A stretch of DNA of 64,000 bases, taken from sequence record OR896157.1. The stretch is one strand, 5' to 3'. Source of the DNA: a phage. Under the pieces are notes generated by a model, which saw nothing but the letters and a program-made list of their open reading frames with translations, did no database searches and was not told the DNA's origin. This document shows positions 4,610 through 49,319 of the stretch, piece after piece. Numbering within the stretch: the first letter of the stretch is position 1; each line of letters starts with the position of its first letter. The translations under genes and the position numbers were made by a program.

Positions 4610-6178
4610 ATGAAATTTGACGTCTTAAGTTTGTTCGCGCCGTGGGCCAAAGTCGACGAACAGGAATACGACCAGCAGCTAAATAATAATTTAGAGTCTA
4701 TCACGGCCCCTAAATTTGATGACGGCGCGACAGAGATTGAATCGGAACGTGGAGACATTGCAGGCGCTGGATTATTCCAGAGAATGTACGGTCAAAATGA
4801 ACCGGGAATGAAAAACACCAGGGAGCTTATCGATACTTACCGTCAGTTAATGAATAACTACGAAGTAGATAACGCTGTCCAAGAAATCGTCTTAGATGCA
4901 ATTGTATACGAAGATGATCATCCAGTTGTTTCATTGGATTTAGATAACACTGATTTTAGCCAGGCGATTAAAGACCGTTTACAAGAAGAATTTAACGAAG
5001 TTCTTACTTGTCTGAATTTTGAAAGAAAGGGTCTTGACCATTTCCGTCGCTGGTATGTCGATTCTCGTATCTTCTTCCATAAAATTATTAACCCTAAAAA
5101 ACCGAAAGAAGGTATTCAAGAGCTTCGTCGTTTAGACCCTCGCAATATTCAGTTCGTTCGTGAAGTTATCACTGACACTGAAGCGGGCGTGAAAATTGTT
5201 AAAGGCTACAAAGAATATTTCGTTTATAACACCGGTCACGAGTCTTATCAATGTGACGGTCGAATTTACGACGCTGGAACGAAAATTAAAATTCCAAAGG
5301 CTGCAGTTGTTTATGCACACTCTGGATTAGTTGATTGTTCAGGAAGAAACATCATCGGTTATTTGCACCGAGCTGTTAAACCTGCTAACCAGCTTAAACT
5401 GCTTGAAGACGCAATGGTGATTTATCGTATTACACGTGCGCCAGACCGTCGAGTATTTTACATTGACACAGGGAACATGCCTTCCCGTAAAGCTGCTGCT
5501 CATATGCAACACATCATGAACACCATGAAAAACCGTGTGGTATATGATGCGTCTACTGGTAAAATTAAAAACCAGCAGCACAATATGTCAATGACAGAAG
5601 ATTATTGGTTACAGCGCCGCGATGGTAAAGCTGTTACTGAAATTGATAATATGCCTGGTGCTTCAGGCATGAACGAAATGGACGATGTCCGTTGGTTCAA
5701 GAACAACCTTTACCAAGCATTACGTGTTCCACTGTCTCGTATCCCGAATGACCAACAAAGTGGAGTTCAGTTTGATGCTGGAACTGGAATTACACGTGAC
5801 GAGTTACAATTTGCTAAATTCATTCGTGAACTGCAGCATAAGTTTGAAGAAATTTTCCTCGACCCTCTTAAAACAAACCTTATTTTGAAAGGCGTAATGA
5901 GCGAAGATGATTGGAAAGATGAAATAAATAACATTAAGATAGTATTTCATCGTGACAGTTACTTCACTGAACTTAAAGATGCTGAAGTCACTGAACGCAG
6001 ATTCAATATGCTTCAAATGGCCGAACCGTTTATCGGTAAGTATATTTCTCATCAGACTGCAATGAAGACTATTCTTCAAATGACTGATGAACAAATTGAC
6101 CAAGAGGCTAAGCAAATTGAGCTAGAGTCTAAAGAGGCTCGTTTCCAAGACCCAGACCAAGAACAAGAGGATTTCTAA
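4610..6178 (+). CDS. 20: portal vertex protein gp20
   Basis: 522 aa from first ATG (track start 4598 is TTG); GGAG Shine-Dalgarno 6 nt upstream; T4 gp20 is 524 aa; synteny 19-20-67. Confidence 0.95.
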
Positions 6179-43302: not shown

Positions 43303-45558
43303 TTAAAGCTTACATGCAGAACAATCTTCGGCTTTTGGTTTTTCGATTTCGAAATCATCGTTACCGGAACCATCACGAGTGTTATGATAGTACAATGTCT
43401 TACCACCAAAGTACCAGAAGTAAAGCAAGTCGTCCATCATAACAGACATTGGCACTTTACCTTTCTCATAATTCTGAGGGTCATAGTAAGTATTAGCTGA
43501 TGCAGATTGGCATACCCACTTCAACATAATAGCTACTTGAGTCAGATAAGGCTTGTTACCCTGCTTAGCAAGTTTCCATGCATAATCATAGAGGTCAGCA
43601 TTCAGTTCAACATTCGGAACTACTTGGTTGAAGCTTCCTTCTTTAGACTCTTTAATAGAGACTGGACCTCGTGGCGGCTCAATACCGTTTGTGCTGTTGG
43701 AAACCTGGGAGGAGGACTCACATGGCATGAGTGCGGACAATGTACTGTTACGGATGCCATATTGCTTGAGTTCTGCACGGAGTGCTTCCCAGTCACAAAC
43801 GTAATTCGGGGCCGCGAGCTGGTCAATTCTTTTATTGTACCAGTCGATAGGTAATTCGCCTCGAGACCAACGAGTGTCTTTATAATACTCGCAAGGTCCT
43901 TTTTCTTTTGCAAGTTTAATTGATGCTTTGATAAGTGCATATTGCAGCCTTTCAAACAGTTCGTGAGTCAAGTCATTTGCATCAGCATATGTAGCAAAGT
44001 TATCTGCTAACCAAGCAGCGTAGTTTGTTACACCAACACCCAATGCTCGACGTTTAAGAGCTTTCAAAGCTTCTTTAACCGGATAACCTTGATAACTCAA
44101 GAGGTTGTCGAGTGCTCGGACTTGGACTTCTGCGAGCTCGTTAATAGTTTCTTGGTCTTGCCAATCGAAGTTGCCGAGCACGAACGCAGACAACGTACAC
44201 AGCGCAATTTCTGCGTCTTCTGAGTAGACGTCTTTAGTAGGTAACGCAATTTCTGCGCAGAGGTTCGATTGCTTAATCGTAGCCACATCACGAATAAAAG
44301 GACCATAATTACCAACGTTATCTACGAAGTAAGGGTAAATTCGAGCAGTGCCTGAACGCTCAGTTAAGAATAACTCAATCAGTTCACGAGCTTTGACACG
44401 CTTCTTACGAACATCTGGATTCTTTTCAAGAGCTTCATATTGTTCACGGAACGCAGCAGCATCTTTGAAATAGTTCTCATAAAGGCGACCAGCATCAATG
44501 TCCGGAGAGAACAGAGTGATGTAATCATCTTTAATCAGACGTTCAAACATCAGGTCGTTGATTTGAACACCGTAGTCCAAGTGACGAATTCGGTTTTCAT
44601 CTACGCCTTTGTTGTTCTTGAGTACGAGGAGGTTTTCAACTTCCAAGTGCCAGATTGGATAGTACAATGTCGCCGCGCCACCACGAACTCCGCCTTGGGA
44701 ACAAGATTTAACTGCTGTTTGGATGTGTTTCCAGAAAGGAATAACTCCAGTATGCTTGACTTCTCCGAAGCCGATTTTTGAACCTTCTGCACGAATCATA
44801 CCTGCGTTAATGCCGATACCAGCACGTTTAGAGATGTACTCTACAATTGATTCAGCAGATTTGTTAATTGATTTCAGTGAATCACCAGCTTCAATAACAA
44901 CGCAAGAGCTGAATTGACGAGTAGGAGTACGAGCACCTGCCATAATAGGAGTAGGCAGAGAAATTTTCTTAGTTGACACGGCATCATAAAAACGAATAGT
45001 GTTCACCAAACGATTTTCACCATCGTCCTGATGCAGAGTCATACCGATGAGCATGAATGCAAACTGAGGAGTTTCGATGATTTGACCGGTGCTACGGTCT
45101 TTGACCAGGTATTTTTCAATGAGCTGCATTGTGCCAGCATACGTCATTTCAAAATCGCGATCATGAACAATTTTACTTTCAAGCAGAGCAATTTCTTCAG
45201 CAGACCATTTGGCAAGAATTTCTTTGTCATATTTGTTGTGATTAACACCAAATGAAATCTGGTCAATAAACGAACGAGGTTCAAACTGCCCATAAACTTG
45301 CTTACGGAGATTGAACATCGCCAGATTACTTGCTACATATTGATAATCTGGTTCTTCAATTGAAATCATTGAAGCTGCAACTTTAGTAGCTGCGCGTTGA
45401 ATGTCATAAGTTGTCATTCCATCTTGTAGATGCGGAACGATAGCTTGATATAGCTCATATGGGTCAACTCGGGTGTTTTCACAACCCCATTCCAGAACTT
45501 TGATAAGTTTTTCTGGAGTAAATTCCTGAGAGGTACCACTGGACTTAATTACTTTCAT
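43303..45558 (-). CDS. nrdA: ribonucleotide reductase large subunit
   Basis: 751 aa (T4 NrdA 754 aa); class Ia RNR features including C-terminal Cys pair. Confidence 0.96.
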   Translation of the reverse strand: MKVIKSSGTSQEFTPEKLIKVLEWGCENTRVDPYELYQAIVPHLQDGMTTYDIQRAATKVAASMISIEEPDYQYVASNLAMFNLRKQVYGQFEPRSFIDQISFGVNHNKYDKEILAKWSAEEIALLESKIVHDRDFEMTYAGTMQLIEKYLVKDRSTGQIIETPQFAFMLIGMTLHQDDGENRLVNTIRFYDAVSTKKISLPTPIMAGARTPTRQFSSCVVIEAGDSLKSINKSAESIVEYISKRAGIGINAGMIRAEGSKIGFGEVKHTGVIPFWKHIQTAVKSCSQGGVRGGAATLYYPIWHLEVENLLVLKNNKGVDENRIRHLDYGVQINDLMFERLIKDDYITLFSPDIDAGRLYENYFKDAAAFREQYEALEKNPDVRKKRVKARELIELFLTERSGTARIYPYFVDNVGNYGPFIRDVATIKQSNLCAEIALPTKDVYSEDAEIALCTLSAFVLGNFDWQDQETINELAEVQVRALDNLLSYQGYPVKEALKALKRRALGVGVTNYAAWLADNFATYADANDLTHELFERLQYALIKASIKLAKEKGPCEYYKDTRWSRGELPIDWYNKRIDQLAAPNYVCDWEALRAELKQYGIRNSTLSALMPCESSSQVSNSTNGIEPPRGPVSIKESKEGSFNQVVPNVELNADLYDYAWKLAKQGNKPYLTQVAIMLKWVCQSASANTYYDPQNYEKGKVPMSVMMDDLLYFWYFGGKTLYYHNTRDGSGNDDFEIEKPKAEDCSACKL

Positions 45559-45856
45559 GCAAATCCTCTAGCGTAAATGTGTCTTTGAATAGTCTGTTTA
45601 CTATATGAGCTATTATATCACCATGGCAAGCTTTAGGTTTACAAGTGCATCCTAATCTCATTCCACGGAGGGTCTCCAAGTGCTCACGTTTTATTTCACC
45701 ACTCCTAATACGCTTAATGAAGTCCTCTTTAAAGGCTTCAATGGCAGCCTCCCGGCTGCCAGCATTTTTACCAACGTCATTACCCCACATTGTACCTCGT
45801 TGGATATTAACGTCGAAATCGGAATGGTATTTATTAACCACTCGACAAGCTCTCAT
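45545..45856 (-). CDS. DUF4326-like Cys-rich protein
   Basis: 103 aa; RGTMWGN and LGCTCKPKACHGD resemble DUF4326 signature motifs as recalled; overlaps nrdA start. Confidence 0.5.
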   Translation of the reverse strand: MRACRVVNKYHSDFDVNIQRGTMWGNDVGKNAGSREAAIEAFKEDFIKRIRSGEIKREHLETLRGMRLGCTCKPKACHGDIIAHIVNRLFKDTFTLEDLHESN

Positions 45857-46086
45857 TTAACTTCCACAATAAACCATGTATCATGAATTAATTGATTAGA
45901 TTCAAGTCCGAATTCTTCAAAACCGTGCGCTTTTTCGTATGCATGGACAACGTTACGAACATAGAGACGCGCTCCACGAACTTGAATAATTGAACCGACC
46001 TTTGGAATTTCAGAATCACGGATGTTATAAACTTCTGCGATAGGGTCTTCTTCATTATTTTGAATTACAATTCTAAGATGTGGCAT
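45853..46086 (-). CDS. hypothetical protein
   Basis: 77 aa. Confidence 0.5.
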   Translation of the reverse strand: MPHLRIVIQNNEEDPIAEVYNIRDSEIPKVGSIIQVRGARLYVRNVVHAYEKAHGFEEFGLESNQLIHDTWFIVEVK

Positions 46087-46274
46087 TATGCTTTACTCAC
46101 AATAACAACGCGTTCAGTAGATTCACCAACAATTTCAATGTGATGAGCCAGAACTATATGAAAATAGCCATTAATCATAATAGAAGAGTTTAATTTGAAG
46201 TCAGCATCGCACAGTTGCTCATCAGTTTGAGCATAAACGATACTTCCCAAAGCATTTGTAAATTTAGTAATCAT
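46086..46274 (-). CDS. hypothetical protein
   Basis: 62 aa. Confidence 0.45.
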   Translation of the reverse strand: MITKFTNALGSIVYAQTDEQLCDADFKLNSSIMINGYFHIVLAHHIEIVGESTERVVIVSKA

Positions 46275-47131
46275 ACAGCCATTTTTCCTTTGATTGTTGG
46301 GTGACTTTCATAGTTAACTAACTTGAAGTCTTCGATAACAGCAAATCGGTTTATCCACTTAAGCTGAGATGAAGTTTGCCAGCGCTCAAACTCAATTGGA
46401 AAATCAATTTCAAGCTCACAGAGTTCTTTTGGCTCTCGACGAAGAATTTCTTCGCACTGCTCAATATGATTTGAGTAGATGTGAGTGTTGCCCCCAGTAA
46501 ATATCAAATGACCAGGTTTTAAGCCAGTCATTTTAGCTACGATATGAATCAAAGCAGCATATGATGCAATATTGAATGGTAGACCAAGGAATACATCTAC
46601 CGACCTCTGGTACCACTGGAGGTCCAGAAACCCATTGCGTACGTTAAACTGATATATCATATGGCATGGTGGAAGCGCCATCTTAGGGATGTCTAGAGGG
46701 TTCCAGGCAGTCACAATTTGACGACGGTCATTAGGCAGTTCTTTAATTCGGTCAATAACCAAAGTCAATTGGTCAACACCCATAAAGTCTCGCCATTGCT
46801 TACCGTAGACAGGACCAAGCTCACCATCAACGTATCCCATTGAACGAGCTTGATTTTCGTAATTGTCGTCCCAGACAGTTTTACCATTTGTCGGAGAACC
46901 ATGCTGACGAAGACGTAAATCGTTTACATTTGTTGAACCAGATAGGAACCACAAAAGTTCTGCAATACATGCTTTCCAGGCAAGCTTCTTAGTAGTTACT
47001 GCTGGAAAACCTTGTTGCAAATCAAAACGAAGCTGAGTGCCAAACACAGCACAAGTGCCAGTTCCTGTGCGGTCATCAGTCACGTAACCTTCATCAAAGA
47101 TATGCTGAATTAGCTGTTGATATTGTTTCAT
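46271..47131 (-). CDS. td: thymidylate synthase (uninterrupted)
   Basis: 286 aa, same length as the spliced T4 Td product; continuous ORF. Confidence 0.95.
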   Translation of the reverse strand: MKQYQQLIQHIFDEGYVTDDRTGTGTCAVFGTQLRFDLQQGFPAVTTKKLAWKACIAELLWFLSGSTNVNDLRLRQHGSPTNGKTVWDDNYENQARSMGYVDGELGPVYGKQWRDFMGVDQLTLVIDRIKELPNDRRQIVTAWNPLDIPKMALPPCHMIYQFNVRNGFLDLQWYQRSVDVFLGLPFNIASYAALIHIVAKMTGLKPGHLIFTGGNTHIYSNHIEQCEEILRREPKELCELEIDFPIEFERWQTSSQLKWINRFAVIEDFKLVNYESHPTIKGKMAV

Positions 47132-47478
47132 TATTTTCCTGGGCGAAAGAAGATTTCACGGCCTTGTTTATCAAACCGACCAAAAACAGTCATCGTATTA
47201 CCAGTGATGACTACATTACCTTTAGCAATATGATGAATTGTTTGACGAGTGTTCATCATAATTTTAACACCTAAGCCACGAGCAATTCTGATGCCTTCAT
47301 CAGCTGCCCAAGTGTCATTGATTTCAACATCAATGCGATACAATCCATGTGGAATTGTTTTGTATAACTCAGGCTTTCGCTTATATTGCTCAATAGTAGG
47401 AGCATTACCCTCGATTACTAAAGCCCAGTTTTTCTGGGTCTCTTCTTGTAACAGAGTCAAATGATTATTGATTTTCAT
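47131..47478 (-). CDS. hypothetical protein, paralog A of tandem pair
   Basis: 115 aa from internal ATG; shares L.LL...TQK.W and GNV.ITGN...FG.F....G...FF.P with the adjacent ORF. Confidence 0.55.
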   Translation of the reverse strand: MKINNHLTLLQEETQKNWALVIEGNAPTIEQYKRKPELYKTIPHGLYRIDVEINDTWAADEGIRIARGLGVKIMMNTRQTIHHIAKGNVVITGNTMTVFGRFDKQGREIFFRPGK

Positions 47479-47785
47479 ATTGTTCTTCCAACGGATTGAA
47501 GAATACTTGACTTCCGCTTTTAAAGAAGTCTCCAATCATTGTAACATAGCCATTTGAAAAGCTAACATTACCATTCATTGAAGCAAGTAGCACTGATTTC
47601 ATTGAACGACAAAGTTCAATTGGGTTATTTCCATTGCTATCATAGATAGTGTACTCTGCATTACGATACTCTCTGATATCTTCAATCGCAAAGGATAACT
47701 CATACACACCGTGAACTTTATTCCAGTTCTTCCATTTCTTTTGAGTTTTATAGGTCTCTAACAGACGAAGATTATACCCTTTCAT
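47465..47785 (-). CDS. hypothetical protein, paralog B of tandem pair
   Basis: 106 aa; see paralog A. Confidence 0.55.
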   Translation of the reverse strand: MKGYNLRLLETYKTQKKWKNWNKVHGVYELSFAIEDIREYRNAEYTIYDSNGNNPIELCRSMKSVLLASMNGNVSFSNGYVTMIGDFFKSGSQVFFNPLEEQYENQ

Positions 47786-48380
47786 AGACAGTCTCCGTTA
47801 ATGAAGTTAGTTCATCACAACGAACCCAAGACGTTTCTACCATTTGAAACGCATTTTCCCATGCCGGATATGAAATAAAGCTCATGTCCAGAGTGACATC
47901 AGAGTTAACCCGATGTTTCTTCTGTATTGACGTTTGGATAATACGGTCTGCGTATGGCTGAGCCGTCTCTAGAATCCTCTTGCCACCAATAACAGAATAG
48001 TTATCATTCGGAAGAAGACGAATACGAATGCCACCGTGATTTGTGTAGTAGTTATTGGTTTTGTCAAGGAAAGCTTTAAATTCTTCTGGACTCATGTAGC
48101 CGTCGGGAAATAAACCATCTTTTGCTTGAGCAAATGGACGATTCATATCTTGTACAACAATGCACTTGCGGCCTTTAAGGGCAGTAGGCATGCTCATCCA
48201 AGTTTTTGCACCCATGATAACGACAGTGTCTTTGGTACGTTTTGCAAAGTTCTGCATATCACGCTTGATATGACCCCACGGCAATCCGTCTTTAAGACCA
48301 AAAGCATATTCGTTTTGACCATTAACTGTCTTGGTTCCACAATAAGCATATACAAGTTGTAGCATTATGATTTCCTGCAT
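47772..48380 (-). CDS. frd: dihydrofolate reductase
   Basis: 202 aa; DHFR-like LPW motif region and nucleotide-binding Gly-rich segment; position upstream of td. Confidence 0.9.
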   Translation of the reverse strand: MQEIIMLQLVYAYCGTKTVNGQNEYAFGLKDGLPWGHIKRDMQNFAKRTKDTVVIMGAKTWMSMPTALKGRKCIVVQDMNRPFAQAKDGLFPDGYMSPEEFKAFLDKTNNYYTNHGGIRIRLLPNDNYSVIGGKRILETAQPYADRIIQTSIQKKHRVNSDVTLDMSFISYPAWENAFQMVETSWVRCDELTSLTETVYERV

Positions 48381-48577: not shown

Positions 48578-48675
48578 TAACCTTGCCTCATTCCGCATTT
48601 GATACAACGACCACCAGCAAACATCAGATTAGTCCCGCAATACTTGCATTCCCAATCAGAAAGAATTCGAATCAT
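48577..48675 (-). CDS. unannotated 32-aa zinc-ribbon-like mini-ORF
   Basis: MIRILSDWECKYCGTNLMFAGGRCIKCGMRQG, CxxC-N11-CxxC; coupled to downstream ORF. Confidence 0.35.
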   Translation of the reverse strand: MIRILSDWECKYCGTNLMFAGGRCIKCGMRQG

Positions 48676-48979
48676 AACCAGCAGCCCTTACAAGACGACG
48701 CATCATTTCCATTCCATCTTCAACAGCACCAGCGAGTTCTTCAAATGCAGTTTTAGTGAAGATGAAAGCCGCACCTACTTTCTGACGCTGAAGATAACCG
48801 TTGATGATTTGGTCATCCAGCGGGAAGGTGCCATATCCAGTTTCAATTATGCCTGACACTCGGTTACCACGGGAGTGTGGGTCATACTCCATAGTAATCC
48901 AAGATACACCTGGAAAATTCTCAAACTGACAACGTACTTTAACTTTAGGATATGCAATTGAGTGAATATCGTTAGACAT
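48656..48979 (-). CDS. hypothetical protein
   Basis: 107 aa. Confidence 0.55.
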   Translation of the reverse strand: MSNDIHSIAYPKVKVRCQFENFPGVSWITMEYDPHSRGNRVSGIIETGYGTFPLDDQIINGYLQRQKVGAAFIFTKTAFEELAGAVEDGMEMMRRLVRAAGYDSNSF

Positions 48980-49263
48980 TATTTTGGCTCCTTTTTAGCA
49001 ATTTTCCAGGCAGCTTTGAAAGCTTCGACTTCAGAAATTTCAATCCAAAAACCGCTACCAAAGCCATCGTTATAGCAGGGACAGCCATCGCAGTAATGGT
49101 CCCAAGTAAGTACCAGACCATCACCACGAACAGCACCAGTTTCCATTTCGCGAAGGCGGTCTTCAGCAGCTTCAATAGCTTCCGGGTCATTCCCTTCGAT
49201 GATAAAGTACCACTTGCCATTGTATTCACTTCCGAGTTTAATTGATTGACGTTGAAGTTTCAT
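48979..49263 (-). CDS. hypothetical Cys-rich protein
   Basis: 94 aa from ATG with AGGAG Shine-Dalgarno; HYCDGCPCY motif. Confidence 0.55.
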   Translation of the reverse strand: MKLQRQSIKLGSEYNGKWYFIIEGNDPEAIEAAEDRLREMETGAVRGDGLVLTWDHYCDGCPCYNDGFGSGFWIEISEVEAFKAAWKIAKKEPK

Positions 49264-49290
49264 TTTATTCTCCTTTGTTTTGATAGGGCT

Positions 49291-49319
49291 ATAGTAACAC
49301 ACCATAGCCCTGATGTAAA
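49291..49319 (-). promoter_or_regulatory. early-promoter-like motif TTTACA-N17-TACTAT (copy 5)
   Basis: Same motif family; the -10 lies within a short palindrome GGGCTATAG...CTATAGCCC. Confidence 0.5.

Follow-up and report, generated by a model that had tools for sequence, protein, structure and literature searches.

ORF A and ORF B, two small genes lying between the dihydrofolate reductase gene (frd) and the thymidylate synthase gene (td) of a T4-like phage (genus Karamvirus, CC31/PG7 type), are homologous and, by sequence comparison, ancient paralogues. As a whole they are best explained, with a probability that we put at roughly 0.35, as ancient paralogues acting as putative adaptors tied to the Frd/Td module. 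Both are plain members of the phage protein family PHROG 1928, and their sequences and positions give no feature that sets the pair apart from the rest of the family. PHROG 1928 is already catalogued, so the stretch of DNA analyzed here (sequence record OR896157.1, 64,000 nucleotides, hereafter the window) adds one more member rather than a new entity. What the analysis adds is the recognition of two ancient subtypes with a fixed gene order, their constant attachment to the 3' end of frd among the genomes compared (at least 12 genera), strong purifying selection, and a confidently predicted fold without a close solved relative. The family is a reasonable and well-defined target for studies of the T4 dNTP-synthetase complex, or of host-specific accessory genes beyond the E. 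coli model phages. T4 itself lacks PHROG 1928, which may be the reason why the family has never been studied. Should its members prove to bind dihydrofolate reductase (DHFR) and thymidylate synthase physically, a classic metabolic complex would gain a new component.

Two overlapping small genes occupy the frd-td junction

Over the 2.3 kb around the gene pair, identity is 96.8% with Enterobacter phage vB_EclM-UFV01 and 93.3% with CC31. The genes all run on the minus strand, in the order frd, ORF A, ORF B, and td. An earlier note on this DNA had placed a pair of ORFs of about 115 and 106 aa at 47131-47785, and both the coordinates and the lengths are correct. The features of the block are as follows:

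47772-48380, minus strand: frd, dihydrofolate reductase, a 202 aa ORF (Pfam DHFR_1, E = 1.2e-18)
47465-47785, minus strand: ORF A, 106 aa, the 'short' frd-proximal gene at position 1 (phrog_1928, E = 1.6e-30)
47465-47478, minus strand: overlap of 14 nt between the end of ORF A and the start of ORF B, read from the sequence
47131-47478, minus strand: ORF B, 115 aa, the 'long' td-proximal gene at position 2 (phrog_1928, E = 8.9e-39)
46271-47131, minus strand: td, thymidylate synthase, 286 aa, uninterrupted (Pfam Thymidylat_synt, E = 6.5e-98, full length)

ORF A is the orthologue of CC31p239 and ORF B that of CC31p238, and the Frd protein of the window is 98% identical to that of CC31. The 3' end of frd also overlaps the start of ORF A by 14 nt, and the stop codon of ORF B has one base in common with the ATG of td (TAATG). 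A Shine-Dalgarno-like sequence is found at each start of the block; for example, a GGAG lies 8 nt before the ATG of ORF A. The overlap of ORF A and ORF B suggests that the two are translationally coupled. Within the block, promoter-like and terminator-like sites showed no excess over shuffled sequence. Given the gene overlaps and this lack of excess internal signals, frd, ORF A, ORF B, and td look like one coupled translation unit.

The mechanical ORF list had extended ORF B, which stops at 47131, to a TTG at 47535 (134 aa), and this extension falls within ORF A. We place the start at the ATG at 47478 (115 aa) because the N-terminus that it gives is conserved across genera and is preceded by a ribosome-binding site. 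The first ATG of the frd ORF precedes the start annotated for CC31 (MLQLV...) by five codons (48366-48380, MQEII), and either start may be the one used.

ORF A and ORF B are paralogues under purifying selection

The earlier note had proposed a tandem duplication on the basis of shared N- and C-terminal motifs, and pairwise alignment bears out the relationship. BLASTP aligned the two proteins with E = 3e-7 and 26% identity across 74 aa. Their Smith-Waterman score was 71, compared with 25.5 ± 4.4 for shuffled sequences (z = 10.4), and none of 2000 shuffles scored as high. The motifs themselves are present, but their spacing had been given one residue off: L.LL...TQK.W is exact in ORF B and one residue longer in ORF A. 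The C-terminal motif reads GNV.[IF][TS]...F...G...FF.P, and at one spot the two copies differ in residue order (NG versus GN). The profile of phrog_1928 (annotated "unknown function") matched both proteins end to end, covering residues 3-105 of ORF A and residues 4-115 of ORF B. The main structural difference between the two is that ORF B carries about 18 additional residues, LVIEGNAPTIEQYKRKPE (positions 20-37), which are missing from ORF A. A profile search of all six-frame ORFs detected no further paralogue in the window.

The proteins encoded by ORF A and ORF B are 93-95% identical to their CC31 counterparts, and dN/dS against CC31 was 0.069 for ORF A, 0.058 for ORF B, and 0.030 for frd. 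By these measures, both are genuine protein-coding genes under strong purifying selection. It is accordingly extremely improbable that they are spurious ORFs or the remnant of a mobile-element or homing-endonuclease insertion. Homing endonucleases do occur in the td region of related phages, but the purifying selection, together with confident fold predictions and conservation across genera (both described below), argues against such an origin. Scans of family libraries found no nuclease domain (GIY-YIG, HNH, or LAGLIDADG) and no mobile-element domain in either ORF. A homing endonuclease or other mobile cargo was also considered and set aside, as the fixed position of the genes and their divergence in parallel with Frd rule against it.

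PHROG 1928 genes follow frd throughout enterobacterial T4-like phages

Members of PHROG 1928 are labelled 'hypothetical protein' in hundreds of phage genomes; examples are CC31p239/CC31p238, gp155/gp154 of Salmonella phage S16, and g236 of Yersinia phage phiR1-RT. These relatives and the window pair share an identical gene position and order. Searches with tblastn matched ORF B in 126 phage records and ORF A in 272, nearly all of them T4-like phages of Enterobacterales. The hosts are Enterobacter, Klebsiella, Salmonella, Citrobacter, Serratia, Yersinia, Erwinia, Edwardsiella, Pectobacterium, Cronobacter, and Proteus; only 11 of the 272 records with ORF A-like matches are named for Escherichia. 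In a profile search of 1.84 billion representative proteins, only 48 clusters matched. Forty-seven of these are 49-139 aa long and carry no domain fusions. The remaining one, a 2169 aa OTU-helicase protein (P0056), was rejected as a summed-repeat artefact, with each repeat of its helicase-associated domain contributing at most 12 bits. All genomic contexts of PHROG 1928 genes that were examined are T4-like.

We compared the frd-td junction in 14 genomes or contigs, comprising the window, other enterobacterial T4-like phages, and metagenomic contigs. A PHROG 1928 gene lies directly after frd in all 14, which represent at least 12 genera, and in every case the last 1-20 nt of frd are shared with the first such gene. 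The overlap is kept even in the three cases in which unrelated ORFs stand between the PHROG 1928 gene(s) and td. Family genes downstream of frd were found in Karamvirus, Moonvirus, Gelderlandvirus, Kanagawavirus, Winklervirus, Marfavirus, Tegunavirus, Jiaodavirus, Muldoonvirus, Proteus T4-like phages, and one Tequatrovirus (F2). The arrangement is either a short-then-long pair or a lone copy of either type. Pairs occur in the window, CC31, S16, Moon, PEi20, CHI14, Potts1, and three metagenomic T4-like contigs, one of which is of the Proteus-phage type; single copies occur in phiR1-RT, JD18, F2, and PS2. A divergent Proteus-phage-like contig (L008) has three extra ORFs between the family pair and td, one of which (5004-5555, 183 aa) has a faint match to the Pfam family tRNA-synt_2.

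In T4, by comparison, frd and td adjoin with a 4-nt overlap and nothing between them, in agreement with the earlier note, and RB69 has the same 4-nt overlap and an empty junction. Profile searches of six-frame ORFs revealed no hidden paralogue in the T4 region from nrdB to gene 32 or in the corresponding regions of RB69 and RB49. In RB49, the slot (L017, 6075-6436) is occupied by two small ORFs, RB49p236 and RB49p237, neither of which matches the family profile. The frd-td junction seems to have taken up unrelated accessory ORFs repeatedly. The note had regarded the pair as an insertion into the nucleotide-metabolism operon. This is apt insofar as there is an indel relative to T4, but the genes are not peculiar to this phage. 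The event behind this indel is ancient, either an acquisition at the root of the enterobacterial T4-like phages or a loss in the T4 and RB69 lineages.

The pair also stands outside the known frd.x families: neither ORF, and none of 61 aligned family members, matched DUF5417, FRD2, or Phage_FRD3. The T4 genes frd.1, frd.2, and frd.3 (DUF5417, PF03197, and PF05798) resemble ORF A and ORF B in being small early-region ORFs without an assigned function that belong to the same cluster for nucleotide metabolism and replication. However, they have no sequence relation to the pair and lie on the other side of frd, in the gp32-frd interval. The window has its own frd.1 homologue (DUF5417) on that side, at 48979-49305.

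The duplication predates the divergence of several genera

In a neighbor-joining tree of 25 PHROG 1928 members, the short copies next to frd fall into a single clade (bootstrap 100%), apart from the td-proximal copies. This clade holds the short copies of six paired genera and two paired metagenome contigs, together with the single copies of JD18 and F2. The td-proximal long copies cluster separately, along with the single copy of phiR1-RT. The PS2 copy and the two copies of the Proteus-phage type also resemble the long subtype and branch basally. Because the short and long clades are common to several genera, the duplication predates the divergence of those genera. On the same tree, losses of either subtype followed in some lineages. 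We found no published description of this split into two subtypes.

A recent tandem duplication, inserted into the nucleotide-metabolism operon of one phage lineage, would account for the adjacency and homology of the two genes and for the absence of anything between frd and td in T4 and RB69. We nevertheless consider it very unlikely, given that the copies are only 26% identical, that they fall into separate cross-genus clades, a topology that refutes it, and that Moon, S16, PEi20, CHI14, Potts1, and metagenomic contigs likewise have the short gene before the long one. The duplication that the earlier note had proposed is therefore upheld as paralogy, but not as a recent event.

The identity of the window proteins to their counterparts in other genera was as follows:

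Position 1 (short): 31-41%
Position 2 (long): 35-57%
Frd: 45-59%
Td: 74-83%

PHROG 1928 has thus diverged at about the rate of Frd, which fits a long co-inheritance with the module.

Both proteins are predicted to be small OB-like domains

The ORF A and ORF B proteins are soluble and hydrophilic, with a size of about 12-13 kDa. Their pIs are 6.6 (ORF A) and 9.7 (ORF B), a difference between short and long copies that is not consistent across genera. No enzymatic motif or transmembrane segment was detected in either protein. Scans of both against Pfam, NCBIfam, and PADLOC gave nothing above threshold, and a Pfam scan of the 61 aligned members found no Pfam family matched by more than two of them. 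Sequence-profile searches of the PDB with the two proteins likewise gave nothing significant. Weak matches to SepF (E about 1) appeared with a shallow profile and were gone with a deeper one, and SepF was rejected. Across the family, W18, G100, K104, and G106 are invariant, and H44, G45, Y47, F102, and F111 are nearly so (ORF B numbering).

AlphaFold2 modelled ORF A with a pLDDT of 94.4 and a pTM of 0.87 (61-sequence alignment) and ORF B with a pLDDT of 80 (13 sequences). On this basis, each protein is predicted with confidence to be a single beta-rich domain. Both models consist of an N-terminal strand (b0), followed by b1, b2, b3, one helix, a long b4, and b5; the model of the long subtype has an additional short helix after the N-terminal strand. 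This order of elements is that of the OB fold (b1-b2-b3-helix-b4-b5), and the closest structural neighbors of the models are ssDNA- and RNA-binding OB domains. Among known systems, the OB-fold domains that come closest are those of YgiW/BOF, RPA, PriB, SSB, the OB domain of the ExoVII large subunit, and the OB domain of Pol epsilon subunit B. The predicted fold is best described as OB-like with no close solved relative, rather than as a member of a defined OB family.

A Foldseek search of BFVD returned only uncharacterised phage proteins. Among them, the longer proteins A0A2H4YFY2 of Aeromonas phage Ah1 and E1A2K1 of Aeromonas phage phiAS5 (157-161 aa) resemble the ORF A model (Foldseek E 1e-3 to 8e-3, TM about 0.5-0.6); sequence searches had missed both.

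Putative roles of the pair

The part of the preferred reading that concerns function is tentative and, taken by itself, less likely than not. We propose that ORF A and ORF B may be non-catalytic binding or adaptor proteins acting with the phage machinery for thymidylate and dNTP synthesis. Under this proposal, the two proteins would be made in step with DHFR and thymidylate synthase and would act on or with that machinery. They could, for example, hold Frd and Td together, or anchor them to a further partner, for instance an enzyme of the host or DNA coated with gp32. An A:B heterodimer is possible but cannot be obligatory, since either type can occur alone. In favor of the preferred reading are the selection on both genes, the age of the duplication, the strict linkage to frd, the divergence at about the rate of Frd, the lack of excess internal signals, and the restricted distribution. 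Two considerations weigh against it. The conserved position may reflect mere vertical inheritance in a collinear genome, without any functional link to frd and td. Moreover, T4, RB69, and most coliphages lack PHROG 1928 yet have a complete dNTP-synthetase complex, and the family is therefore dispensable for that machinery as such.

A more elaborate version of the adaptor proposal, which we regard as improbable, is that the pair forms a non-covalent 'junction' of thymidylate synthesis. Two diverged OB-like subunits, of an otherwise unseen fold variant and made at a constant ratio to DHFR and thymidylate synthase, would physically connect these enzymes or anchor them to gp32 and the replisome. 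In the bifunctional DHFR-TS of protozoa and plants, a junction or linker polypeptide is encoded between DHFR and TS. The pair would be a functional analogue of this linker that was lost in the T4 and RB69 lineages. The likeness is that of a polypeptide encoded between DHFR and TS and made together with both; the difference is that ORF A and ORF B are separate proteins without sequence relationship to the linker, so the comparison is one of analogy only.

Alternatively, the genes may encode putative host-specific takeover or counter-defence proteins that neutralise a host factor and simply ride on the early/middle frd-td transcript. We rate this as possible, though on the unlikely side. The target, for example a nucleotide-pool-targeting defence or a host enzyme, would be present in Enterobacter, Klebsiella, Salmonella, Serratia, Yersinia, and similar hosts and irrelevant in E. 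coli laboratory hosts. The distribution is consistent with this idea, as PHROG 1928 is common in T4-like phages of Enterobacterales other than E. coli, rare in coliphages, and absent from T4 and RB69. So are the variation in copy number (pair or single), the unrelated accessory ORFs housed at the frd-td junction of RB49, and the GC content of ORF A, which is below that of its surroundings (0.343 vs 0.403). The proteins are, in addition, small and non-enzymatic and, judging from the phiR1-RT homologue described below, absent from virions, as is typical of such effectors. However, PHROG 1928 does not evolve unusually fast compared with Frd and has a low within-genus dN/dS, and hence carries no arms-race signature. 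A position fixed to frd across very divergent genera would also be unusual for shuffled accessory genes. The lack of a PADLOC match weighs weakly against the idea, since that library covers defence rather than anti-defence.

We found no study of the ORF A and ORF B genes in the literature, and the sole experimental data point for the family comes from a toxicity screen of phiR1-RT proteins in E. coli. The long-type single copy of that phage, g236, was among the 94 hypothetical proteins screened, a set from which proteins of the virion proteome had been removed beforehand and in which g236 was left (PMC6893735). An HHpred search of g236 by the authors gave no match (PMC6893735). Its relative CFU was 0.401, at a toxicity cut-off of 0.4, and it was not among the four proteins confirmed as toxic (PMC6893735). 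With its score right at the cut-off, g236 may be mildly toxic.

The predicted fold raises a further alternative, namely that the pair are putative nucleic-acid-binding regulators. As OB-like proteins, they would bind mRNA or ssDNA, for example to tune the translation of frd, td, and nrd messages or to act at replication forks beside gp32. In favor of this are the best structural neighbors of the models, the conserved aromatic and basic residues (W18, K104, Y47, and F102), the basic character of ORF B, and the location of the genes in a gp32-frd-td-nrd cluster for replication and nucleotide metabolism. We judge this reading unlikely. The reading of the pair as ancient paralogues and putative adaptors of the Frd/Td module remains the one that we prefer.

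Neighboring genes and annotations

Several features of the flanking genes came to light during the comparison. In CC31, td is annotated as a 348 aa gene (L001, 2887-3933), which corresponds to td fused in frame to a 62 aa ORF. In the window, the 62 aa ORF is separate (46086-46274) and overlaps the td stop codon as ATGA. The difference between CC31 and the window lies near this junction, just after an A-run (GGAAAAATGGCTGTATGA), and the 348 aa td of CC31 may be the product of a frameshift or a sequencing error.

The td gene of T4 carries the I-TevI intron. In the close relatives EnC07 and EcL8g, the td region was matched in two or three pieces and contains about 1 kb more DNA than the query. 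In EnC07, this region is annotated with a homing endonuclease and two thymidylate synthase features; EcL8g has no annotation.

In Klebsiella phage Potts1, gp175 (L015, 605-1210) is labelled 'putative single stranded DNA-binding protein' and is a homologue of Frd (47% identity to the window Frd). The label is probably a misannotation, given the Frd homology of the protein and its location in the frd slot. Farther from the pair, other small ORFs of the window likewise fall into families of unknown function, with a DUF7247 protein at 48656-48979, directly beside the frd.1-family gene, and a DUF4326 protein at 45545-45856, which occupies the nrdA.1 slot of CC31 and belongs to the T4 nrdA.1 family.
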